This document shows positions 1-28,116 of a stretch of 64,000 nt of DNA, one piece after another. The DNA lies in the sequence record MF044457; one strand, written 5' to 3'. A program made the position numbers and the translations under genes. This stretch comes from Escherichia phage ST0. The notes under the pieces are model-generated. The model was not told where the DNA came from, made no database searches, and saw only the letters and a list, made by a program, of their open reading frames with translations. Numbering within the stretch: position 1 is the stretch's first letter; each line of letters starts with the position of its first letter.

Positions 1-113
1 ACTACACTGTTCTCCTTGAGAAGACATTTATTAAACCACTTGAAGGATTCACATCAGCAGCGAAACTCGATTACGAGAAGAAAGCATCTCTGTTCGATAT
101 GTTCGATTTTTGA
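1..113 (+). CDS. 43: 3' end of DNA polymerase (gene 43), partial
   Basis: Frame ending TGA at 111-113 translates ...KPLEGFTSAAKLDYEKKASLFDMFDF*; the tail matches the sliding-clamp-binding C-terminal peptide I recall for RB69 polymerase. Position upstream of the 42/uvsX block fits T4 synteny. Confidence 0.6.
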   Translation, partial: YTVLLEKTFIKPLEGFTSAAKLDYEKKASLFDMFDF

Positions 114-153
114 TATAATGACATGGACGGTAAACTAATTAAATGAGAGAAAT

Positions 154-789
154 ATGAAAACTACTCCTATTACTATCGCTATTGACGCAATCATAAAACA
201 AGCTTCTTCTTTGGCCGCTATGGCCAAAGTAATTAGTCAAAACCCTGCTCGTTATAATGCTATTCTAGAAACTCTTCGACGCCCAGGACTTAGTAATTAT
301 GAAAGCCGAGTAATTATTACAGGTGTTGGTAAGAATGCTAATATTGCAACTAAAGCTTCTGAGACATTTGCTTCACTCGGTATCCCGAGTATGTACTTGA
401 ACACCGGGCATTATTCTCACGGTGATGCAGGATTCATTGCGCCTAATGATGTGTTGATTCATATTAGTCGTTCTGGTAAAACTGAAGAAATGATAGGCGT
501 GGCTAAGCATCTTAAAATGATTCGTCCGAACGTCAAACAGATTCTGTTGCATTGTAACCCAGACATTCCACAAGAAAATGAAGCCCTTTTTGATTACTCT
601 TTCTGTACAGGCATCGCAGTAGAGGTTGATGAGAATTCTCTGGCTCCGACCATGTCCACTACATTGTTGTTAGCGCTTATCGATACTTTTGCTATCAACC
701 TTTCGTCTGAGCGTGGATTTACCTCTAATGACTTCCTTAAGTTCCACCCTGGTGGTGCACTAGGTGCCATGTTACGAGGCGAACAATGA
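154..789 (+). CDS. SIS-domain sugar-phosphate isomerase, KdsD/GutQ-like arabinose-5-phosphate isomerase without CBS domains
   Basis: ORF track 211 aa. Motifs typical of the KdsD/KpsF SIS domain: GVGKNANIATK, SHGDAGFI, ISRSGKT, APTMSTT, FHPGGALG. RBS GAGAG upstream. Confidence 0.8.
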   Translation: MKTTPITIAIDAIIKQASSLAAMAKVISQNPARYNAILETLRRPGLSNYESRVIITGVGKNANIATKASETFASLGIPSMYLNTGHYSHGDAGFIAPNDVLIHISRSGKTEEMIGVAKHLKMIRPNVKQILLHCNPDIPQENEALFDYSFCTGIAVEVDENSLAPTMSTTLLLALIDTFAINLSSERGFTSNDFLKFHPGGALGAMLRGEQ

Positions 790-929
790 AAGCAATAACA
801 ATAGGACTTTTACTATTGATGCTTATCATGACTATCTACTGGAGCTTAACGGCTCCGGTAATGATTCCGACTCTTATAATCGGATGGATTATGATTGGAC
901 TACAAGCAAAGTATGAATGCTTTAACTAG
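786..929 (+). CDS. small hydrophobic protein, 47 aa, below ORF-track size cutoff
   Basis: ATG at 786 overlaps the stop of the preceding gene (ATGA). Translation MKAITIGLLLLMLIMTIYWSLTAPVMIPTLIIGWIMIGLQAKYECFN is almost entirely hydrophobic. Confidence 0.35.
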   Translation: MKAITIGLLLLMLIMTIYWSLTAPVMIPTLIIGWIMIGLQAKYECFN

Positions 930-970
930 AATAGTGTACAATACTCCTACTTACCAATGAGGACCACAAT

Positions 971-2656
971 ATGAAAAAAGCTGTTATTCTTGGTGCTGGA
1001 CTGGCAACTCGTTTGTATCCAATAACGCATCATATTCCTAAGGTGCTTGTTAACTATAAACAAGACACTATTCTGAGCAATTTGTATACAATTTATTCTG
1101 ACCTTGGTGCAGACGAAATTATTGTAGTAGTTCATTCAAAATTTGCTGAAACTGTTCGAGCTTATTGTGAGCAAGAAGGGTTCAATGTGACTATTCGTAC
1201 AGTTGATGAAGCATATGGTTCTGCTTATGCTCTTGCTAAATTGCACAAAGATTTAGACGGCCATAATGTAATTGTTAACTGGTGTGATATTATTCCCGAT
1301 TTTGGTTCATGGTCTTGGAATGTTAACGCAATCTATGTTAAGGGTGACGAATGTCGATATAATTTCGACGGTGAAAATATCACTAACGTAGGTTCAACAG
1401 GTGGTAATGTTGTAGGAATTTATCAGTTCAAAGACTGGGAATTCTATATGGGTTCTACTGATGAGGAAATTCATGAATACTGCAAAGGACGTGATTTCGT
1501 AGAATTCCTTTACGGCAGCGCATTCAATAAATCAGAGCTTATGAATCTAATTGATTTAGGTGATATGCCTAAACTTGAAAAAGCTCATGAAGTTCGTGAA
1601 CTTAATCGTAGTTTTAATGCAGTTGAAATCGGTGAAGAAACTGTAACTAAATTCGCATTAACCGAACAGGGCCGAGCTCTTCAGAAAGATGAGATTTCAT
1701 GGTATCTTAAAGTGAAATCAGATTCAGTTCCTCAGTTAGTTTCTGTTAATGAAAATAACTTTGAAATGGAACGCATTAAAGGTAAGCCAGCATTTGAATA
1801 TATTAAATCCAAATCGAGTCTTGCTCGTCCACAAATTGTTGATGCAATTTTAGATGCACTGAAATTCAGCACAGACACTTATTTTGTAAGTCCTGAAACT
1901 GTTCGCCGTGATTTCACTAAAGAGTTCTATACGAAAGTTATTGATCGTTGTGAAAGTATTCAACCATTGATTGATTCATTCGGTAAAATCACACATGTGA
2001 ACTACACTAAGATTGGACGTCTGAAGCCAATGTTGAAACAAGCTTTAGAACACCTTATTCGTTATCATAACCGTTCTCAGGGACAGTACTCTGTTATTCA
2101 TGGTGACCCGAACTTCAGTAATACTATGATTACTGATAATGGTGAAGTCAAGTTTATCGACCCTCGTGGATATTTTGGTGAAACCAAGATTTACGGGCCA
2201 AAATTGTATGATGAAGCTAAAGTGCTTTATGCTGTTTCAGGTTATGATGAATTCAACGCTAATCCGACCTGGGGGCAATTTACTATTGATGAAACAACTT
2301 GTAATGTGACTATTAACATCAATCCATTAGTTTACAAATATGGAAAGATGAGTTCGTTTAACGAGTATCATCATTTGGCAGTTGCAATTATCTGGATTGC
2401 ATTAGGCGGTTATTTCAAGAATAATCCACTTAAAGCGGTAGCCGCATATTATAAAGGTATGGAACTTCTGACTAAGCAATTACGCAACATGGGCCGTGTA
2501 CTTCAGGACGGCTCTATTAGTTATGACGTAGCAGAACCTGTAACGGCTACTCTGATTACAAAAAATCCTGGTAAATGGGTACTAACTGATAAAGAAACTG
2601 GTGTTTCCTATCGTCCAATCGGTGGCGATATCACTCATCAATGGGAACGAATCTAA
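971..2656 (+). CDS. bifunctional sugar-1-phosphate nucleotidyltransferase (N-terminal) / sugar kinase of the choline-kinase/APH fold (C-terminal)
   Basis: ORF track 561 aa. N-terminus ILGAGLATRL is the G-x-G-x-R loop of LicC/RmlA-type nucleotidyltransferases. C-terminal half has HGDPNFSNTMI and FIDPRG, resembling the catalytic loop and DFG-like motif of LicA/APH kinases. RBS GAGGA. Confidence 0.8.
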   Translation: MKKAVILGAGLATRLYPITHHIPKVLVNYKQDTILSNLYTIYSDLGADEIIVVVHSKFAETVRAYCEQEGFNVTIRTVDEAYGSAYALAKLHKDLDGHNVIVNWCDIIPDFGSWSWNVNAIYVKGDECRYNFDGENITNVGSTGGNVVGIYQFKDWEFYMGSTDEEIHEYCKGRDFVEFLYGSAFNKSELMNLIDLGDMPKLEKAHEVRELNRSFNAVEIGEETVTKFALTEQGRALQKDEISWYLKVKSDSVPQLVSVNENNFEMERIKGKPAFEYIKSKSSLARPQIVDAILDALKFSTDTYFVSPETVRRDFTKEFYTKVIDRCESIQPLIDSFGKITHVNYTKIGRLKPMLKQALEHLIRYHNRSQGQYSVIHGDPNFSNTMITDNGEVKFIDPRGYFGETKIYGPKLYDEAKVLYAVSGYDEFNANPTWGQFTIDETTCNVTININPLVYKYGKMSSFNEYHHLAVAIIWIALGGYFKNNPLKAVAAYYKGMELLTKQLRNMGRVLQDGSISYDVAEPVTATLITKNPGKWVLTDKETGVSYRPIGGDITHQWERI

Positions 2657-3042
2657 TGCACCGTGTAGAAAACATGCTTAATCTTTGTTTTGATGTCGAT
2701 GATTGTATAACAGAGTGGAATAACAATCGTGATTACGTGAACTTCAAACCAGACGTCGAAATGGTGTCTGCCATTAATGCCCTGTATGATGCAGGGCATA
2801 CCATAACGCTTTACACTGCTCGCGGTATGAAGTCAGTAGGCCCTGGTCGTATAGCAATTGACATTCTCCCAAGTCTGATTCAGAACTTGGCAAACATTGG
2901 ATTGAAGTACCATAATTTGCTAACACATAAACCAGTATATGATTGGATTATCGACGACAAAGCTATGCGTCCTGACGAATTCAAAGCTCTTATGAATAAA
3001 GGCGAATTCGAAACATTTAAATCATATAAACCGAATCTATAA
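2656..3042 (+). CDS. HAD-superfamily phosphatase-like protein
   Basis: ORF track 2641..3042; start moved to ATG at 2656 overlapping the upstream stop (TAATG). Motif I-like FDVDDC near the N-terminus, T in LYTAR, K in THKP, IIDDK motif IV-like. Confidence 0.6.
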   Translation: MHRVENMLNLCFDVDDCITEWNNNRDYVNFKPDVEMVSAINALYDAGHTITLYTARGMKSVGPGRIAIDILPSLIQNLANIGLKYHNLLTHKPVYDWIIDDKAMRPDEFKALMNKGEFETFKSYKPNL

Positions 3043-3096
3043 TAATTTAAGTAAGACCTGCAAAAACCATCGCAACAATTAACGCGAGATGCAAAA

Positions 3097-4257
3097 ATGA
3101 ATACCTTTAAAATCGGAACGAATTTTGATTTAGCTCTTCTTGATAAAATCGTAGAGCTCAATAAAACTTATCCTAATAGCTTGATAAACGAAGTATACGG
3201 CTCTACAAGAGAAATGGCTTTTGTAGCAGCCAGACCTGATTTTAGGCTTCCTGACGTTGACAAAAAGATGTTAGAAGATTACGTTAAACGTTGTAACGAA
3301 TTAGGTATTTGCTTTAACTATACACTCAACACGATAAATCCTGGTTCAAAAAGAGAACTAGTTGAGTGGAAGAAGAAAGCTATTCAGGATTATGTTCAGT
3401 ATCTTTGGTCAATAGGCGTATGGCGTATTACTATCGCTAACCCTGTTGTTATGGAAATTGTTCGTGAAGTCAATAAAGACATTGAGATTGAAGTTTCAAC
3501 AATTCTACATGTCGATGCTGTAACTCAAATCAAATACTTGCATGACCAATATAATATCAAAAAGGTCTGCTGCGGAATTCATAAGAACCGTTCAGTTTCT
3601 TTCCTGAAGCGTGCAGCAGAGTTTTGTAATAAGAACAATATAATATTTGAAGTTCTTGTAAATGAGTTCTGTTCTAATGCTGGTAAAGGGTATACAACAC
3701 ATTGTAGTTATCGTGACTCTTGCTATATTTTCCATAGCACCGATGTTACAGTAGATGATGCCAAATCTTTAAATGGATATCCAATGCAACATTGTATTAA
3801 AGCTCGTGATACAGATCCATTTAACTGGTTGAGAACTCGTTTTGTTCGTCCTCAAGATTTGAAACTTTATAATGATATTGGTATCACTCAATTCAAAGTT
3901 TCAGGACGTACAGGTAGCACAGACTACATTTTGAAAGTTCTTGAAGCTTATGCTTCTGAAAAGTTTGAAGGTAATTTGTTGGAATTGTGGAAGCCTTTAG
4001 AGACCATTTTCACTCTTGAAAATGAGACTGAGTTTTCACATACGGTAAATATTGAAACCTCTTTGTTAGATGGCTTTTTAGAAAAAAGGTGGTTCAGACA
4101 TCCAGATTTCGATTGTGCTAATGAAATCTGCGGGACGACGTGTACATATTGTGAAAGATATTATAAACGTCAATTATCTAAAAACGGGTTAGCAGAAAAC
4201 TCTATATCTATTATTGATATAACTAACTCTGATGACGCTTTGAGGTACCCGGAATGA
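3097..4257 (+). CDS. Cys-rich protein with U32-family-like signature, function unknown
   Basis: ORF track 386 aa. EVLVNEFCSNAGKGYTTHCSYRDSC resembles the U32 family signature (E-x-F-x2-G-x-x-C...C-x-x-S); C-terminal CANEICGTTCTYC cluster. Confidence 0.55.
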   Translation: MNTFKIGTNFDLALLDKIVELNKTYPNSLINEVYGSTREMAFVAARPDFRLPDVDKKMLEDYVKRCNELGICFNYTLNTINPGSKRELVEWKKKAIQDYVQYLWSIGVWRITIANPVVMEIVREVNKDIEIEVSTILHVDAVTQIKYLHDQYNIKKVCCGIHKNRSVSFLKRAAEFCNKNNIIFEVLVNEFCSNAGKGYTTHCSYRDSCYIFHSTDVTVDDAKSLNGYPMQHCIKARDTDPFNWLRTRFVRPQDLKLYNDIGITQFKVSGRTGSTDYILKVLEAYASEKFEGNLLELWKPLETIFTLENETEFSHTVNIETSLLDGFLEKRWFRHPDFDCANEICGTTCTYCERYYKRQLSKNGLAENSISIIDITNSDDALRYPE

Positions 4258-4397
4258 TTTCTAGAAAAACTTTTAACCACCAACTTAACGAAGAGATTTT
4301 GACTATGAAAATTAACAGCAACGAACAAATTCTTAAAAAGGCCCTAATGGGCCTGTTTGAAACTAAAGCGGCTAAAGTGATTAAAGAACCTGTTTAA
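4254..4397 (+). CDS. small ORF, 47 aa, below ORF-track cutoff
   Basis: ATG overlaps the stop of the preceding gene (ATGA); translation MISRKTFNHQLNEEILTMKINSNEQILKKALMGLFETKAAKVIKEPV. Confidence 0.25.
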   Translation: MISRKTFNHQLNEEILTMKINSNEQILKKALMGLFETKAAKVIKEPV

Positions 4398-4535
4398 TTG
4401 GAATACTACGCTGATGCATTTCTTCATAGTGTTCTTGGAAGTATCGATGCTGAAGCTTTACGTTATATCAACATTGTCAAGAAATTCAAATAAGCTTTAC
4501 GAATTGAGTATATAATAAATTGTATTGAGGTAAAC

Positions 4536-5252
4536 ATGGGAAAACATAACACAATGAAATATATCAAAGCCGCAGATTTTCAAACCGCATTTAAAGCAGT
4601 CAATCGTGAAATTTTAGAAAACCCGGAATTCGTAACTGATTCTCGTATTGGACGTTGTAATGAAATTGGGTCTATGACAGTAGTTGTTGACACTCCGTCA
4701 TCATTCAAAATGACTGACCCACGTATTAACCGCATCTCTTATGAATATGCCGAAGACTTCTGGAAGTTTATGATTTCTGGTGGTACCAACGCAGAAGAAG
4801 CGTTTAAGGCATATCCTAATGTCGCTAAATTTATTTCTAAACCAAAATCAGATGTTTTGCCGGCGAACTTCAACACTTTCTATGGTCCTCGCATTGTGGC
4901 CCAATTACCAGCTCTTCTAAAAGAACTTAAAGAGAAGCCTAACTCTCGAAGAGTTGTGTTCCAAATTCTAGAAAGTTCTGATCAGGCTTTGCTTGATTCG
5001 GACGAAACACTTGAATATCCATGTACTGACTCAGTGACTTATTATATTCGCGATGGTAAGCTTTATACCCACTGTCATATGCGTTCTCAGAACTGTGCTG
5101 TTGTTATGCAGTTGGATTTTTATCTCCAAGGAAAATTACTTCATTATATCGCTAACGAATGTGGTGTAGAAGTTGGTGATTATACTCATACCATGGTAAG
5201 TGCCCATGTGTTTGAACGTGATTTTGATTATGTTAAAGGATTCCTTGACTAA
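4536..5252 (+). CDS. 42: thymidylate-synthase-fold pyrimidine hydroxymethylase, gene 42 (dCMP hydroxymethylase) position
   Basis: ORF track 238 aa. NSRRVVFQI, YPCTDSVTYYIRDGK and HMRSQNCAV parallel the SRR, catalytic Cys and MRSND regions I recall for T4 gp42, but overall divergent. RBS GAGGT. Confidence 0.7.
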   Translation: MGKHNTMKYIKAADFQTAFKAVNREILENPEFVTDSRIGRCNEIGSMTVVVDTPSSFKMTDPRINRISYEYAEDFWKFMISGGTNAEEAFKAYPNVAKFISKPKSDVLPANFNTFYGPRIVAQLPALLKELKEKPNSRRVVFQILESSDQALLDSDETLEYPCTDSVTYYIRDGKLYTHCHMRSQNCAVVMQLDFYLQGKLLHYIANECGVEVGDYTHTMVSAHVFERDFDYVKGFLD

Positions 5253-6151
5253 TGGCTATTTTCCGCGTACCTATCTTGAGTATGCGGTCTTATGAAACTG
5301 GACAGTATGCTATCCTTAAGGATGGCAACTTCCAACTTCATTTGCACCGTGCTAATCCGGGTGATGTGATTACATATCCACGTAATGCATCTGATATTAA
5401 AGAATGTGAACGTCTTTTCCCAGAATTTAAGTTTGTTCCATTATGGTATAAAGATAACGCGTATAACACTCGTAAATATTTCTGGTCTGAAAATGAATTT
5501 GTGGTTGATTCATTAATTGCTTATTATGATTGTGATTTTCTAATCACAGATATCACTGGATACGACGGCGCTTTTGACGTAGAATTCAATTTCAATATCA
5601 CTGCAGACCCTAATAAACCACGTTTTTATATTGACGAATTCTTAAAAACCGATATGTTGTCGGTTAATCGTTCACTTCAAACTACCGTGTTGAATAAACG
5701 TCAAAAGGAAGTGCTGGTTAACGCTGGTGCAGATGGTAATAAGATTATCGTAACGCAGAAAGTTATACGTCCTTCCATCATGCAGCGTCTTGTAGGTGAT
5801 TTGGCTCCTATTCATCTAGATGGTATTTTTCATCCATTTCGAATTAGTGACCCGTGCTATCGTTTTGAACAAGTGGTTGAATGTGCAATTCAATTAGGCC
5901 AACCGCTTTATATAACCGATCCAAATAATAGCTTCGACAGAAATAAGTATCCTGAAGAAGCGCTGATTCGAATTTTTAAACCAACTAAAACTGAGTACTA
6001 TCAAATTCTTAAAGGACGGCCGAAGATTCAATATTTCGAAAATCCTGAAGAAGTATTCCATCCAGGTCTTGGTGAGTTCATCTACTTTAATGCTTTAATT
6101 TCTTCACCGTATAATATACCTAAATACGAAGATGTCGTAATCGAGGAATAA
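5252..6151 (+). CDS. hypothetical protein at the beta-glucosyltransferase locus
   Basis: ORF track 299 aa; start overlaps the stop of the hydroxymethylase gene by 1 nt. No motif recognised. Confidence 0.5.
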   Translation: MAIFRVPILSMRSYETGQYAILKDGNFQLHLHRANPGDVITYPRNASDIKECERLFPEFKFVPLWYKDNAYNTRKYFWSENEFVVDSLIAYYDCDFLITDITGYDGAFDVEFNFNITADPNKPRFYIDEFLKTDMLSVNRSLQTTVLNKRQKEVLVNAGADGNKIIVTQKVIRPSIMQRLVGDLAPIHLDGIFHPFRISDPCYRFEQVVECAIQLGQPLYITDPNNSFDRNKYPEEALIRIFKPTKTEYYQILKGRPKIQYFENPEEVFHPGLGEFIYFNALISSPYNIPKYEDVVIEE

Positions 6152-6152
6152 A

Positions 6153-6701
6153 ATGGCTAAAATTATTTTAGTAGATGGCCCAGATAATGCTGGTAAAACA
6201 ACTTTCATTAATGACATAATGGAAATTAGTGAAAGATATGTAAAGATTGATTTCCCTAAACGAACAGTTGATGGACGTTTCGATGTTAAGTCTCGAAATG
6301 AAGTTGGCTGTTTCGAAACGATGTTGAATTATTTAGACCCTACTAAGATTTATCTGTTAGACCGTGGATATATTAGTAACTGGGTTTATGGACGTATTCG
6401 ACAAGATGCGGACTCGGTTCTTGACGTTTATGAACAGGATTATGTTCGTCTTTGCCAAAACCATGATGTGTTCACAATTATTTTAACACGTAACGAAATG
6501 ACTGAAAGTTTTGAAGACGATCTTATTACTTTGTCTTCATTCGGTTTTAATACAGTCATTTCATATTTTGAAGAGTTTGCAATTCATAACAAAATCCAAA
6601 CGTATCAATTACTTAATCATGACGGTGCTAACAAAGTTATAGGATTTAATGCAAGCGAACGTAATTATTTGATTACAGAAATTATCAAATGGGCTCGTTA
6701 A
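6153..6701 (+). CDS. P-loop NTPase, small nucleotide/sugar-kinase-like
   Basis: ORF track 182 aa; Walker A GPDNAGKTT at residues 9-17; starts 1 nt after the upstream stop. Confidence 0.6.
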   Translation: MAKIILVDGPDNAGKTTFINDIMEISERYVKIDFPKRTVDGRFDVKSRNEVGCFETMLNYLDPTKIYLLDRGYISNWVYGRIRQDADSVLDVYEQDYVRLCQNHDVFTIILTRNEMTESFEDDLITLSSFGFNTVISYFEEFAIHNKIQTYQLLNHDGANKVIGFNASERNYLITEIIKWAR

Positions 6702-6800
6702 GAGCCTGTTTAAAGTTTTAAATGCTGTATAACCCTTAGTATATAATCGTCTTATCTTTTAAACATGAGTAAAATATAATGATGCCTATGGAAAAATACA

Positions 6801-7973
6801 ATGTCTGATTTAAAATCTCGTCTGATTAAAGCTTCTACTTCTAAAATGACTGCAGACTTGACTAAGTCTAAGCTGTTTAATAATCGTGATGAAGTCCCTA
6901 CTCGTATTCCGATGTTGAATATTGCATTAGGTGGTGCACTGAATGCCGGGTTGCAATCAGGCTTAACTATTTTTGCTGCTCCTTCTAAACACTTTAAAAC
7001 GTTGTTTGGACTGACCATGGTTGCAGCATATATGAAGAAATATAAAGATGCAATCTGTTTGTTCTATGATTCAGAATTTGGTGCTTCAGAATCTTATTTT
7101 CGTTCAATGGGTGTTGATTTAGACCGTGTAGTTCATACTCCGATTCAATCTGTCGAACAACTTAAAGTTGATATGACTAATCAGCTTGACGCTATTGAAC
7201 GCGGTGATAAAGTTATTATCTTTATCGATTCAATCGGTAATACTGCATCTAAGAAAGAAACTGAAGATGCATTGAACGAGAAAGTTGTAGGTGATATGTC
7301 TCGTGCTAAGGCACTTAAATCTCTGTTCCGCATTGTGACTCCTTATCTGACTATTAAAGATATTCCATGTGTTGCAATCAACCATACAGCAATGGAAATC
7401 GGTGGATTGTATCCTAAAGAGATTATGGGTGGTGGTACAGGTATTCTTTACTCTGCTAACACTGTATTCTTTATCTCTAAACGTCAGGTTAAAGAAGGTA
7501 CAGAATTGACCGGTTATGACTTCACGTTGAAAGCAGAAAAATCTCGCACCGTTAAAGAAAAATCTACTTTCCCAATCACGGTTAATTTTGATGGCGGTAT
7601 TGACCCATTCAGTGGCTTGTTAGAAATGGCAACTGAAATTGGTTTTGTGGTTAAGCCTAAAGCTGGGTGGTATGCTCGTGAATTTCTTGACGAAGAAACA
7701 GGTGAAATGATTCGTGAAGAAAAATCATGGCGTGCTAAAGCTACTGATTGTGTAGAATTCTGGGGGCCGTTGTTTAAACACAAACCTTTCCGAGATGCAA
7801 TTGAAACTAAATATAAACTAGGTGCTATCTCTTCTATTAAAGAAGTTGATGACGCTGTTAACGACCTTATTAATTGCAAAGCAACAACTAAAGTTCCGGT
7901 TAAAACTTCTGATGCTCCGTCTGCAGCAGATATAGAAAACGACCTTGACGAAATGGAAGATTTCGATGAATAA
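6801..7973 (+). CDS. uvsX: UvsX RecA-like recombinase
   Basis: 390 aa; near-collinear with T4 UvsX as I recall it (MSDLKSRLIKASTSK..., GWYAREFLDEETGEMIREEKSWRAK). Confidence 0.95.
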   Translation: MSDLKSRLIKASTSKMTADLTKSKLFNNRDEVPTRIPMLNIALGGALNAGLQSGLTIFAAPSKHFKTLFGLTMVAAYMKKYKDAICLFYDSEFGASESYFRSMGVDLDRVVHTPIQSVEQLKVDMTNQLDAIERGDKVIIFIDSIGNTASKKETEDALNEKVVGDMSRAKALKSLFRIVTPYLTIKDIPCVAINHTAMEIGGLYPKEIMGGGTGILYSANTVFFISKRQVKEGTELTGYDFTLKAEKSRTVKEKSTFPITVNFDGGIDPFSGLLEMATEIGFVVKPKAGWYAREFLDEETGEMIREEKSWRAKATDCVEFWGPLFKHKPFRDAIETKYKLGAISSIKEVDDAVNDLINCKATTKVPVKTSDAPSAADIENDLDEMEDFDE

Positions 7974-11057: not shown

Positions 11058-11426
11058 ATGAAAAAATTAATCGCTTTAACAATGATATTTGGATTAACCG
11101 GATGTGGTGCCCATGGCTTTATCCCTAATAACGTTGGCCAACTGATTTACAATCCGAATGTTAAACAGTATGACCAACCTAAAGTTGAAGTGGAAGACCC
11201 GGTTACTGTAGGTAATCGAATGGTTCAAGCTGATGCCCATGCTCAACGTTATCGTGACTCTGATACTGTAGCATTGCCAAAAGAACAACGCGTTAAAGAA
11301 CATTGTCTACAGGCTACTGAAATCGCATTCATTCGCTATGTTGAAACAACCGGTAAAGAGCCCACCCAGAAACAAATCGCAAATAACTACGTCCAGTGTA
11401 TTGAACGTTTAAACAAATTTAACTAA
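11058..11426 (+). CDS. putative lipoprotein
   Basis: 122 aa; signal peptide MKKLIALTMIFGLTGC with lipobox LTGC. Confidence 0.6.
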   Translation: MKKLIALTMIFGLTGCGAHGFIPNNVGQLIYNPNVKQYDQPKVEVEDPVTVGNRMVQADAHAQRYRDSDTVALPKEQRVKEHCLQATEIAFIRYVETTGKEPTQKQIANNYVQCIERLNKFN

Positions 11427-11429
11427 TTG

Positions 11430-11459
11430 GTTTACACCAAAGTTAAAATAAGATATTAT
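11430..11459 (+). promoter_or_regulatory. early promoter
   Basis: GTTTAC, about 18 bp, TATTAT. Confidence 0.5.
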
Positions 11460-11487
11460 AAACATAACAAATCAAGAGGAAATTAAC

Positions 11488-11736
11488 ATGGAATTATTCG
11501 TAGCTAGTTCAGTAGCGGTTTTAATCGCAGGTATTGGTTCAATCATCATTTACATGTTGCCTTGGGTAATCGCACTTATTCGTGGCACAAAAAGCACAAC
11601 AGCAATCTTCTTTGTATCTTTACTCTTTAACTGGACGATGGTTGGTTGGATTGGAACTTTAATTTGGTCTATCGTTGCCGAAAAGAAATCTGCTCAGCAG
11701 CCTCAACAAGTAATTATTATTCGCGAAAAAGAATAA
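11488..11736 (+). CDS. small integral membrane protein (two predicted TM helices)
   Basis: 82 aa; two long hydrophobic segments; RBS AGAGGA. Confidence 0.6.
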   Translation: MELFVASSVAVLIAGIGSIIIYMLPWVIALIRGTKSTTAIFFVSLLFNWTMVGWIGTLIWSIVAEKKSAQQPQQVIIIREKE

Positions 11737-14775: not shown

Positions 14776-15297
14776 ATGGCACACTTTAACGAATGTTCAC
14801 AACTTATTTCTGGTGTTGATAAAGCAGAAGAAGCTTATTTTAATGCTCTGATTCACGAAGATAAAGACCCACTGCAGGTAATGCTTGATATGCAGAAATC
14901 TTTACAGGTTCGTCTGGCAAATGACAAGCCTGAACATAACAAACATCCTGATGAATTGGCCACTGCTGGTGATGTTGTTGATTGGCTGCGTAATCAGAAA
15001 GATTATATTGATGATGAATTCCGTGAACTGCTGACTTCACTTGGTGGTATGAGCAATGGTGAAAAAGCCGCTAGCTCTGTATGGAAACCGTGGAAGGCGC
15101 AACACGCTGAATATCGAAATCGTCGTATCGATGAACTGTCTCCTGAAGACCAGCTTGAAATTAAATTCGAGATGATTGATATTCTACATTTCGTTCTAAA
15201 TATGTTCCAAGGTCTAGGACTTTCTGCTGAAGAAATCTTCAAACTGTATTACCTGAAAAACCAACACAACTTTGAACGCCAGGATAATGGTTACTAA
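14776..15297 (+). CDS. 56: gp56 dCTP pyrophosphatase (MazG-like dCTPase/dUTPase)
   Basis: ORF track starts at a TTG at 14761; ATG at 14776 gives MAHFNECSQLI... matching the remembered T4 gp56 N-terminus; RELLTSLGGMSNGEK and EIKFEMIDILHFVLNMF conserved. Confidence 0.85.
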   Translation: MAHFNECSQLISGVDKAEEAYFNALIHEDKDPLQVMLDMQKSLQVRLANDKPEHNKHPDELATAGDVVDWLRNQKDYIDDEFRELLTSLGGMSNGEKAASSVWKPWKAQHAEYRNRRIDELSPEDQLEIKFEMIDILHFVLNMFQGLGLSAEEIFKLYYLKNQHNFERQDNGY

Positions 15298-27015: not shown

Positions 27016-28116
27016 ATGAAAGTTATGTTTATCCCATCTCGTGCAGTCCCATTTAATCCTGACCGTGTACAAGGTGGCCTTGAAGCAGTACATTTAAATG
27101 TGTTGAAATATCTTGTGTCCATCGGTGCTGATATTGATTATATCGGCTTTGATAATGACACGTTTGGTGACTGGAAAGTTACACACCATCCTGTTGGTCA
27201 TCTGACTAAATTCAGTCTAGGTATGAGTTATACTATGGCTCGTAAGATTGTTGAACTAGCCGACATCCATGAATACGATTTTGTTGTTACTATGGAACCG
27301 ACTAAACTAACCGTTCAGGCAATTAAAGACGCAGGTCTCTCTAAAGTTCATAAGAATTTTATGGCAACACCATTTGAACCGGTATCTCGTGGCATTGTTC
27401 AAATTTGGGACCAGACTATTCAAATTCATAAGAATGGTGGTAAGAGTTATGCTCCTACTAAAGCCTTCCGTGAATTTGAACGTAAATATTGCCATATGAC
27501 TTCAGCTCTGACTGACAAAATTGATTATGATTATTGGCGAGCAAATCCGTTGTTTGAAGCCGAAGATTATCCGGTTATTTGTTTGAATGAGAAACCTGAA
27601 GTTCTTCCAGCGACTGATCTGATTATTAGTGCACAACGTTATGACACTAAAATGCGTCGTACTGATGTTGCTCTTGAAGCAATTAAAGCACTAGGCGAAA
27701 ATGGTATTGGTTATTGTCCTAGTAAATGGGCACCACCAGCTAAATATCCTGTTATTATTGATGCTCCACACAGTGAAATCATGGAACGTCTTAAAACAGC
27801 TAAAGCACTTATTAATACGTGTCCTGACACAGGTACGGTAGAGAATAGTTCTATTGAAGCCATCTCTAAAGGTGTCCCTGTAATCCAGTTAGCTTTTAAG
27901 GATTATCCTCATGCGACATTCGAATACGACCCAGATACTGTGCGTGTCGAAATTGATTCCTCTACTCCTAAGAAAGAAGTAGTTGCGCTTTACACAAAAG
28001 CTGTATTAGAATTCACTGACACATACGAAGCTCGAGTTAAACGTGCTGAAGCAGTATGGAAGAAGTATAATCGAGATGCAGTTGTTGCGATGTGGGATAA
28101 AATCTTCACAGCGTAA
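27016..28116 (+). CDS. GT-B-fold glycosyltransferase-like protein (candidate DNA hmC glycosyltransferase)
   Basis: 366 aa; C-terminal ENSSIEAISKGVPVI resembles the E-x-x-x-x-EA...G-x-PVI donor-binding motif of GT4-type GT-B enzymes. Lies between 39/60 and rIIA. Confidence 0.65.
   Translation: MKVMFIPSRAVPFNPDRVQGGLEAVHLNVLKYLVSIGADIDYIGFDNDTFGDWKVTHHPVGHLTKFSLGMSYTMARKIVELADIHEYDFVVTMEPTKLTVQAIKDAGLSKVHKNFMATPFEPVSRGIVQIWDQTIQIHKNGGKSYAPTKAFREFERKYCHMTSALTDKIDYDYWRANPLFEAEDYPVICLNEKPEVLPATDLIISAQRYDTKMRRTDVALEAIKALGENGIGYCPSKWAPPAKYPVIIDAPHSEIMERLKTAKALINTCPDTGTVENSSIEAISKGVPVIQLAFKDYPHATFEYDPDTVRVEIDSSTPKKEVVALYTKAVLEFTDTYEARVKRAEAVWKKYNRDAVVAMWDKIFTA

Follow-up and report, generated by a model that had tools for sequence, protein, structure and literature searches.

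A U32-family protein as a candidate oxygen-independent pyrimidine hydroxylase in the arabinosyl-5-hydroxycytosine gene cluster of Escherichia phage ST0

What is a gene of the Peptidase_U32 family doing among phage genes for arabinosylated DNA? The question is raised by a 64,000-nucleotide stretch of Escherichia phage ST0 (sequence record MF044457; this whole stretch is hereafter called the window), in which a gene for a Cys-rich U32-family protein (3097-4257) belongs to a cassette flanked by the end of DNA polymerase gene 43 on one side and by a thymidylate synthase (TS) homolog on the other. The source is an RB69-like Mosigvirus, and the genes at 154-6701, 14776-15297 and 27016-28116 very probably make up the published arabinosyl-5-hydroxycytosine (ara-5hoC) DNA hypermodification system, with its published mechanism. 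Since the donor pathway and the base chemistry have already been published and the cluster is already known, the locus as such adds one more member of a well-sampled phage genus. The remaining novelty is the U32 gene, to which comparative evidence gives a specific, testable function.

We propose that the U32 protein is a prephenate-dependent, O2-independent iron-sulphur (Fe-S) hydroxylase of the pyrimidine C5 position, which would make 5-hydroxy-deoxycytidine monophosphate (5-hydroxy-dCMP) or a close relative; to this prediction, drawn from sequence comparison, we give about an even chance. RB69-like phages would then possess an anaerobic route to 5-hydroxycytosine beside the O2-requiring TS-type enzyme, in which the Fe-S enzyme, taking its oxygen from prephenate, would supply the same 5-hydroxy-pyrimidine nucleotide when the host lacks oxygen. 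The pairing of hydroxylases would parallel that of the ribonucleotide reductases, of which T4-like phages carry both aerobic and anaerobic forms. Paired aerobic and anaerobic enzymes also have precedents in E. coli, namely UbiU/V versus UbiI/H/F and TrhP versus TrhO (PMC10990095, PMC6599085). That the phage protein is the first U32-family hydroxylase acting on a DNA precursor, as a 5-hydroxylase of dCMP (or of deoxyuridine monophosphate, dUMP, or deoxycytidine triphosphate, dCTP), is a claim on which we hold the scales to be level. A literature search whose reach did not extend to He 2026 and Mahler 2025 found no paper in which phage DNA modification is tied to U32, prephenate or chorismate mutase, and the Thanatos paper and a phage transposon-sequencing (Tn-seq) preprint are silent on U32 and chorismate mutase.

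Family, fold and conserved residues of the U32 protein

The gene, on the plus strand like the other genes of the system, encodes a TIM-barrel protein of 386 residues (RB69 gp50) that matches Pfam PF01136 (Peptidase_U32) at 6.3e-11, with 42.4 bits against a cut-off of 22.4. It is annotated as hypothetical in phage HY126, where its accession is XAN60477.1, as 'putative peptidase' in LC53 and as 'peptidase' or 'collagenase-like protease' in many database records. An AlphaFold2 (AF2) model built from 75 homologs reached a pLDDT (predicted local distance difference test) of 93.6, and its best fold match in the PDB is 5D88, the U32 protein Mk0906, the remaining matches being generic TIM barrels; a sequence search of the PDB returned nothing at E <= 1.

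Characterized U32 proteins of E. coli provide the frame for a functional prediction. RlhA is needed for 5-hydroxycytidine 2501 of the 23S rRNA and requires Fe-S biogenesis and prephenate, with E161, C169, C176 and two C-terminal Cys as essential residues (PMC5727448). TrhP is needed, in a prephenate-dependent manner, for the 5-hydroxyuridine of tRNA, in parallel with the O2-dependent TrhO (PMC6599085), while in anoxia UbiU/V draw on prephenate for the oxygen that they put into ubiquinone precursors (PMC10990095). Among RlhA, TrhP and UbiU, the three E. coli proteins set against the phage family in profile comparisons, the closest by this measure is RlhA, with an hhalign probability of 80.7% (205 columns) versus 17.5% for TrhP and 4.8% for UbiU. 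This profile alignment, preferred to a MAFFT alignment in which the motif Cys of the E. coli paralogs and the phage protein were misplaced, sets phage C203 and C209 on RlhA C169 and C176.

Across 121 homologs, down to 47% identity, ten positions are invariant (C158, C192, C203, C209, C233, C340, C345, C349, C352 and H213), the last four Cys forming a C-terminal CX4CX3CX2C motif; within this phage family, E185, E190, C192, C203 and C209 show little or no variation. Nine invariant Cys would suffice for one or two [4Fe-4S] clusters, the cluster itself being predicted. The phage protein shares with RlhA, TrhP, UbiU and UbiV the U32 domain together with its conserved motif Glu and Cys, as well as additional C-terminal Cys, and the likeness would extend to the chemistry, C5 hydroxylation of a pyrimidine, and to the existence of an O2-dependent partner, as TrhO and UbiI/H/F are in E. 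coli. It nevertheless represents a distinct subfamily of about 360-390 residues, with a C-x5-C spacing, its own CX4CX3CX2C tail and no RNA-binding extensions, which unlike the E. coli paralogs is found in viral contigs and presumably acts on a deoxynucleotide.

Genomic company and distribution of the U32 gene

Forty-eight U32 loci were examined, seven from assemblies and 41 from IMG/VR, of which 16 are T4-like and 32 are others (25 of these from IMG/VR). The gene adjoins a chorismate mutase and/or a 3-deoxy-D-arabino-heptulosonate-7-phosphate (DAHP) synthase in 25 of the 48; neither enzyme is encoded in this window. A Pfam-significant chorismate mutase adjoins U32, mostly directly after it, in 13 of the 16 T4-like IMG/VR loci. 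In Enterobacter phage Entb_45 the mutase gene overlaps the end of U32 (Pfam CM_2 at 40.9 bits, the cut-off being 27); it likewise overlaps U32 in Winklervirus LC53 and Shewanella phage Thanatos-1, and one small open reading frame (ORF) separates the two in Bragavirus vB_SdyM_006, with the CM_2 profile passed in all three. The U32-mutase pair of Thanatos occupies another place within the cluster, which suggests joint movement of the two genes. Queried by tblastn, the mutase retrieved 56 phage records from many genera, 54 of them complete T4-like genomes of about 155-178 kb, the mutase lying beside the TS homolog or U32. Six jumbo-phage-sized contigs carry CM_2 directly after U32, and among non-T4-like loci a fusion of DAHP synthase and chorismate mutase stands beside U32 in four and a DAHP synthase alone in two. 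An adjoining chorismate mutase or DAHP synthase would raise the supply of the oxygen donor.

All the metagenomic U32 loci examined lie on viral contigs, among genes of deoxynucleotide metabolism or DNA modification. Many non-T4-like contigs share a list of parts comprising a GT1-like transferase, SIS, AfhE-like and HAD proteins and a kinase; the order in locus L056 is U32, chorismate mutase, an unknown gene, AfhE-like, HAD, glycosyltransferase and kinase. In other contigs (L013, L035 and L040), GT1 and U32 are accompanied by a UDP-galactopyranose mutase, indicative of a donor of the UDP-galactofuranose type, which replaces the arabinose genes, and L014, L039, L046 and L057 combine U32 with a GT1-like transferase, no donor gene being detected. 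A TS profile found its target in 15 of the 16 T4-like loci (16 of 16 by phmmer with single seeds) versus none of the 32 others, within 7-10 kb of U32. The gene tracks prephenate-making enzymes and occurs where a TS-type hydroxylase is not near. Context therefore indicates that U32 tracks the glycosyl acceptor and no particular sugar, and in several kinds of uncultured phage contig without a nearby TS homolog it may be the sole hydroxylase.

Three further loci show other surroundings. In L008 (7447-9086) and L011 (6504-8083), the U32 homolog comes directly after a dCMP deaminase gene and is followed by a conserved protein of about 250 residues without a family match; their contigs, one of 466 kb and a related one of 60 kb, encode Pol III alpha, uracil-DNA glycosylase and a single-stranded DNA-binding protein, the 466-kb contig also encoding a thymidylate kinase. 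In those phages the product may be 5-hydroxyuracil instead of 5-hydroxycytosine. Locus L009 (8001-14360) holds two U32 paralogs on one contig, which share 49% and 22% identity with the U32 protein of the window, in a nucleoside-salvage-type setting with NT5C, a nicotinamide mononucleotide transporter, a deoxynucleoside kinase, a radical SAM/SPASM protein and a nucleoside deoxyribosyltransferase-like protein.

U32 was found in 220 phage records, and every named host among the matches listed belongs to the Enterobacterales or to Shewanella, all of them facultative anaerobes. For the AfhE-type gene of the donor pathway the number is 375 phage records, 57 of them from Acinetobacter phages, none of which is among the U32 matches listed (seven further organism groups account for 12 records); in phage Lazarus, the cluster has neither U32 nor chorismate mutase. 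Metagenomic U32 members, at 47-58% identity, number at least 100 among the 120 matches listed. Comparison between genera places U32 with the best-conserved products of the cluster, at 79-86% identity versus 40-82% for the others (AfhE 52-71%, GT1 48-68%), barring one AfhF at 90%.

Weighing the possible roles

Several observations weigh against a prephenate-dependent hydroxylase. Up to a 2024 paper (PNAS, PMC10990095), hydroxylation in vitro had not been demonstrated for any U32 enzyme, and in the phage protein the second canonical Cys of the U32 motif is shifted relative to RlhA, giving C-x5-C and not C-x6-C. The absence of a TS homolog from the non-T4-like loci concerns the 7-10 kb around U32 and not whole genomes. 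The Dhakaviruses of E. coli have the cluster without U32, which makes the gene accessory and not obligatory. There is no chorismate mutase in the window or in other Mosigviruses, where the slot after U32 is taken by an unrelated, decaying ORF, so that the oxygen donor would here come from PheA/TyrA of the host. Finally, RB69 gp50 has been labelled a 'sugar or heterocycle reductase' from fold matches (Lee 2026, PMC13326640).

That label corresponds to the best-surviving alternative, in which U32 would serve the sugar branch, reducing or otherwise tailoring arabinose or its nucleotide. The gene does lie between the donor-pathway genes and the TS homolog, and the TIM barrel also matches sugar-active enzymes, at lower rank, the label being given in Table 1 of PMC13326640. 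We consider this role unlikely: UDP-arabinofuranose synthesis was reconstituted without the U32 protein (He 2026, to the extent relayed in PMC13326640), U32 is found with differing donor pathways or with a GT1-like transferase and no detected donor gene, and its adjacency to chorismate mutase and DAHP synthase would be left unexplained.

U32 might otherwise serve the TS-type flavin hydroxylase as an Fe-S electron-transfer partner, for instance a flavin reductase. The TS-type enzyme depends on reduced flavin, which is loosely bound (PMC13326640), U32 has about ten invariant Cys, and its gene neighbours the TS homolog in every T4-like locus. Yet U32 is present in 32 loci without a nearby TS homolog, the TS homolog is active in E. 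coli without U32 (PMC13326640), and the link to prephenate-forming enzymes again finds no explanation, which makes such a partnership quite improbable. An action on RNA, by which U32 would hydroxylate host or phage RNA in the manner of RlhA or TrhP to tune translation, apart from DNA modification, has in its favour that the characterized pyrimidine-hydroxylating U32 proteins act only on rRNA and tRNA (PMC5727448, PMC6599085). The phage protein, however, is devoid of the C-terminal extensions of RlhA and TrhP, and its gene always lies amid genes for DNA modification or deoxynucleotides (dCMP deaminase, deoxynucleoside kinase, NT5C, Tmk, GT1-like transferase), and we hold an RNA substrate to be distinctly improbable.

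A fourth alternative bears on the acceptor that the whole cassette serves. The first-pass annotation, made from the sequence alone, had taken the gene at 4536-5252 ("gene 42", RB69 gp48) for the hydroxymethylase gene and proposed that the cassette feeds a nucleoside diphosphate (NDP)-pentose onto the 5-hydroxymethylcytosine (hmC) provided by a T4-type gene 42 dCMP hydroxymethylase. This is in keeping with the T4-like gene order (43 ... 42 ... uvsX), with arabinosyl-hmC having been reported in 2018 (PMC6024577) and with two residues that the TS homolog has in common with T4 gp42, a dCMP-specifying Asp at the position of ThyA N177 and an acidic residue at that of L143. In an alignment with E. 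coli ThyA and T4 gp42, the positions of ThyA L143, D169 and N177 are taken in the window protein by Glu, Asn and Asp, and in T4 gp42 each time by Asp; around D169 the motif reads MRSQN in the window, QRSCD in ThyA and MRSND in T4 gp42. Every 5-hydroxy-dCMP synthase tested by Lee 2026 bears this Asn at D169 as a signature (PMC13326640), and the window protein is 97.5% identical to the crystallized, flavin-bound 5-hydroxy-dCMP synthase of HY126 (PDB 9IQC). Judged by these sequence features, the gene at 4536-5252 encodes a flavin/O2-dependent dCMP 5-hydroxylase and no hydroxymethylase.

Published chemistry agrees. The DNA of RB69 and other Mosigviruses contains 5-hydroxycytosine bearing one or two arabinoses, joined to C5 itself by an ether oxygen (PMC13326640; PMC13390438), as established for RB69 by nuclear magnetic resonance, mass spectrometry and 18-O2 labelling (PMC13326640) and for Mosigvirus NP by mass spectrometry (PMC13390438); a Mosigvirus of the Durham collection has the same modified bases as RB69 (PMC13390438). 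These two sources place arabinosyl-5-hydroxycytosine in the virion DNA of RB69, NP, HY126, Bas46 and Bas47. The first-pass statement that RB69 DNA carries arabinosyl-hmC was thus right as to the sugar (PMC6024577) and wrong as to the base, and hmC as the acceptor, refuted for RB69 and HY126, is very improbable here. Least credible of all is a collagenase-type peptidase, suggested by the 'peptidase' and 'collagenase-like protease' annotations, since that label is historical, the characterized members are required for O2-independent hydroxylation (PMC10990095, PMC5727448, PMC6599085) and the genomic context is unrelated to proteolysis. All these explanations are weaker than that of a prephenate-dependent hydroxylase.

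The surrounding arabinosylation system

Positions 1-7000 of the window are 98.6% identical in nucleotide sequence to Mosigvirus genomes; at least 80% of this segment is covered by 150 phage records, and 154 records match it with at least 95% identity. In gene order the region corresponds one to one with RB69 p055 to p045, and the proteins are nearly those of HY126 (SIS 99.1%, AfhE 97.0%, AfhF 100%, U32 99.5%, TS homolog 97.5%, GT1 99.0% and kinase 98.9% identity), with near-exact crystal-structure matches for the TS homolog (9IQC/9IR2/9IQU) and the phosphatase (9IQW). The genes, their order and the predicted products, UDP-arabinofuranose and 5-hydroxy-dCMP, are hence those of the HY126/RB69 Afh/ara-5hoC system. 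Relative to the RB69 reference, the AfhE (971-2656, 561 residues) and GT1 (5252-6151, 299 residues) genes are intact, where RB69 has ORF052c/053c and ORF046c/047c, and the ORF after U32 has acquired a nonsense codon. Both RB69 splits have been put down to sequencing errors (Lee 2026, PMC13326640). The presence of arabinose in RB69 DNA, with this module as the proposed source of UDP-arabinose, goes back to Thomas 2018 (PMC6024577). A literature search on the Afh gene names returned unrelated acronyms only. The Afh/ara-5hoC literature further comprises He et al. 2026 (Nat Chem Biol), Lee et al. 2026 (NAR) and, reportedly, Mahler et al. 2025 (Cell Host Microbe).

The donor branch starts with a SIS isomerase of 211 residues (154-789; Pfam SIS 1e-10), which consists of the SIS domain only and matches the NCBIfam models KpsF/GutQ (2e-32) and KdsD (7e-31) as well as PDB 3ETN (2.6e-25), 5UQI and 2XHZ. 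On these matches it is an arabinose-5-phosphate isomerase, the homolog of RB69 gp55, predicted to turn ribulose-5-phosphate into D-arabinose-5-phosphate. The 561-residue fusion at 971-2656 has an NTP_transferase domain at residues 3-99 (8.5e-10; PDB 1JYK, 2e-5) and weak kinase-fold matches at residues 308-409 (Fructosamin_kin, EcKL, APH, RIO1), the profile of an AfhE-type bifunctional arabinose-5-phosphate kinase/UDP-arabinose pyrophosphorylase, the predicted identity of this protein. Its C-terminal kinase domain would add the 1-phosphate and its N-terminal nucleotidyltransferase domain would later convert arabinose-1-phosphate into UDP-arabinofuranose. In between, the 5-phosphate would be taken off by the small HAD phosphatase at 2656-3042 (128 residues; an alternative ATG at 2641 gives 133). 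The latter has no Pfam match and is recognized by the NCBIfam model TIGR01689 (capsule biosynthesis phosphatase, 4e-13) and PDB 1XPJ (5e-10); residues 5-133 of the longer reading are 100% identical to PDB 9IQW, and all 128 of 128 residues are identical to the HY126 protein. By sequence it is an AfhF-type Mg-dependent phosphatase, predicted to convert arabinose-1,5-bisphosphate into arabinose-1-phosphate. These functions are inferred because the proteins are 97-100% identical to those of HY126, whose AfhE and AfhF pathway was reconstituted biochemically (He 2026, as reported in Lee 2026, PMC13326640); in that report the route runs from ribulose-5-phosphate via arabinose-5-phosphate, arabinose-1,5-bisphosphate and arabinose-1-phosphate to UDP-arabinofuranose. 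RB69 gp55, gp52:53 and gp51 have been proposed for the same route (Lee 2026, PMC13326640).

Much of the first-pass annotation holds up against these data. It had recognized a cassette foreign to T4 between the polymerase gene and "gene 42", which the ORFs and the Mosigvirus matches bear out, and its family calls for the four main proteins (SIS, nucleotidyltransferase-kinase, HAD and U32) agree with Pfam, NCBIfam and PDB searches. The isomerase, kinase, phosphatase and nucleotidyltransferase logic that it likened to NDP-heptose synthesis matches the published pathway, the route from ribulose-5-phosphate via arabinose-5-phosphate to an NDP-pentose is the He 2026 result for the HY126 proteins (in the account of PMC13326640), and a phage-encoded supply of sugar donor for DNA glycosylation was correct and already published. 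It gave U32 no role, and the published donor pathway runs without it; whether the enzyme set had been characterized, which it left undecided, is answered in the affirmative by PMC13326640, citing He 2026. Of the four genes that it counted in 154-4397, four long co-directional ones are indeed present, together with two 47-codon ORFs that bring the number to six, and the system extends beyond this interval. The statement that T4 has only imm there was nearly right: imm is accompanied by imm.1 between its genes 43 and 42.

In the acceptor branch, dCTPase gp56 (14776-15297; 173 residues, 97.1% identical to RB69 gp56 by tblastn) would remove dCTP and supply dCMP, whose C5 the TS homolog (4536-5252; PDB matches at E 3e-160) would hydroxylate with flavin and O2. 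Making 5-hydroxy-dCMP with oxygen from O2 and binding flavin have been demonstrated for the TS homolog (Lee 2026, PMC13326640), and the aerobic branch via this enzyme has been shown for RB69 and HY126. Kinases would lift 5-hydroxy-dCMP to the triphosphate before its incorporation into DNA; a candidate is the thymidylate kinase-like P-loop nucleotide kinase of 182 residues at 6153-6701 (RB69 gp45), which has weak P-loop Pfam matches, is annotated as thymidylate kinase in RB69 and has its structural matches given in Table 1 of PMC13326640. Glycosyltransferases would then place one or two arabinofuranoses on the 5-hydroxyl. The first candidate is the GT1 protein at 5252-6151 (RB69 gp46:47), without a Pfam match and with a proposed role as an arabinosyltransferase (PMC13326640); its 299-residue gene occupies the slot after the TS homolog, where a T4-type b-gt (351 residues in T4) was not found. 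The second candidate, a homolog of RB69ORF003c at 27016-28116 (366 residues, 98.1% identity by tblastn), has a proposed role of the same kind (PMC6024577; PMC13326640).

With the synthesis of ADP-L-glycero-D-manno-heptose by GmhA, HldE and GmhB, the donor branch shares the sequence of isomerase, anomeric kinase, distal phosphatase and nucleotidyltransferase, as well as a kinase-nucleotidyltransferase fusion and a small HAD sugar-bisphosphate phosphatase. The resemblance is one of logic only: the phage isomerase is of the KdsD/KpsF type, with no GmhA model among its NCBIfam matches, the kinase domain gives weak matches to the APH/choline-kinase type of fold whereas that of HldE is ribokinase-like, the nucleotidyltransferase domain precedes the kinase domain, and a pentofuranose is carried here on UDP. 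With the glucosyl-hmC system of T4 (gp42, gp56, gp1, alpha- and beta-glucosyltransferases), the phage shares strategy and genomic position, a TS-superfamily enzyme altering dCMP, a dCTPase clearing dCTP and DNA glycosyltransferases completing the base. The two differ in that flavin/O2 hydroxylation stands here for the folate-dependent hydroxymethylation of T4, the sugar is ether-linked directly to C5, and the donor is made by the phage whereas T4 uses host UDP-glucose.

Gene 43 ends at 3-113 with an RB69-type C-terminal clamp-binding tail (KKASLFDMFDF before the stop codon) and is annotated as DNA polymerase in S143_2 and NRG-P0074; on the other side, uvsX is the next gene downstream of the P-loop kinase. 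The cassette is tightly packed, with 4-base overlaps at 786-789 and 4254-4257, a 1-base overlap at 2656, and gaps of 41, 54 and, up to the TS homolog, 138 bases. A hydrophobic, membrane-type ORF of 47 residues (786-929; ORF scan) is annotated in RB69 in a shorter version (RB69ORF054c), is 97.9% identical in HY126 and has a counterpart of equal length and place in Winklervirus LC53 (62% identity); the accounts of the system consulted here assign it no role in the pathway. The ORF after U32, a homolog of RB69ORF049c, spans 4254-4493 as a 47-residue ORF (4254-4397, with an in-frame TAA at 4395-4397) plus a remnant. It is intact, with 79 residues, in RB69 and NRG-P0074, annotated as the same 47-codon ORF in S143_2 and frameshifted after codon 40 in HY126; with two or more disruptions of independent origin, the gene seems to be in decay. 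For the 79-residue Mosigvirus form, an identity as chorismate mutase was rejected (no Pfam match, BLASTP E 6.9, hhalign probability 0.1%).

The genes imm.1 and imm lie at 11058-11736, about 11 kb away, beside sp and the gene 61 region, so that the arabinosylation cassette takes over their T4 position and is not placed alongside them. Homing-endonuclease-type genes interrupt the cluster between AfhE and AfhF in NRG-P0074 (L001 4141-4902) and between AfhF and U32 in LC53 (L016 5078-5716), and none is inserted in the cluster of this window. Dhakavirus QL01 has a reduced cluster (L003 5062-10151) made of imm, a 166-residue ORF, AfhE-like, HAD, kinase, TS homolog and GT1, with no ORF annotated as a SIS isomerase. 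A promoter and terminator scan of positions 1-7000 found no more sites than in shuffled sequence, and the composition profile gave no foreign-DNA signal, the G+C content being 0.32-0.42 throughout.

What the U32 gene may mean for these phages follows from the demand they face: all cytosines need replacing and the sole known hydroxylase needs O2, a gap that an O2-independent enzyme would close. E. coli in the gut lives mostly without oxygen. If the proposed function is true, prephenate-dependent hydroxylation would extend from RNA and quinones to DNA precursors, and the chorismate mutase and DAHP synthase genes of phages would be accounted for. The protein would also be a soluble U32 enzyme of small size and one chain, whose substrate is probably a mononucleotide, and thus a much easier subject for a first in vitro U32 reconstitution than rRNA, tRNA or membrane-bound ubiquinone intermediates. 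Such an enzyme would, finally, bear on phage therapy in anoxic body sites.

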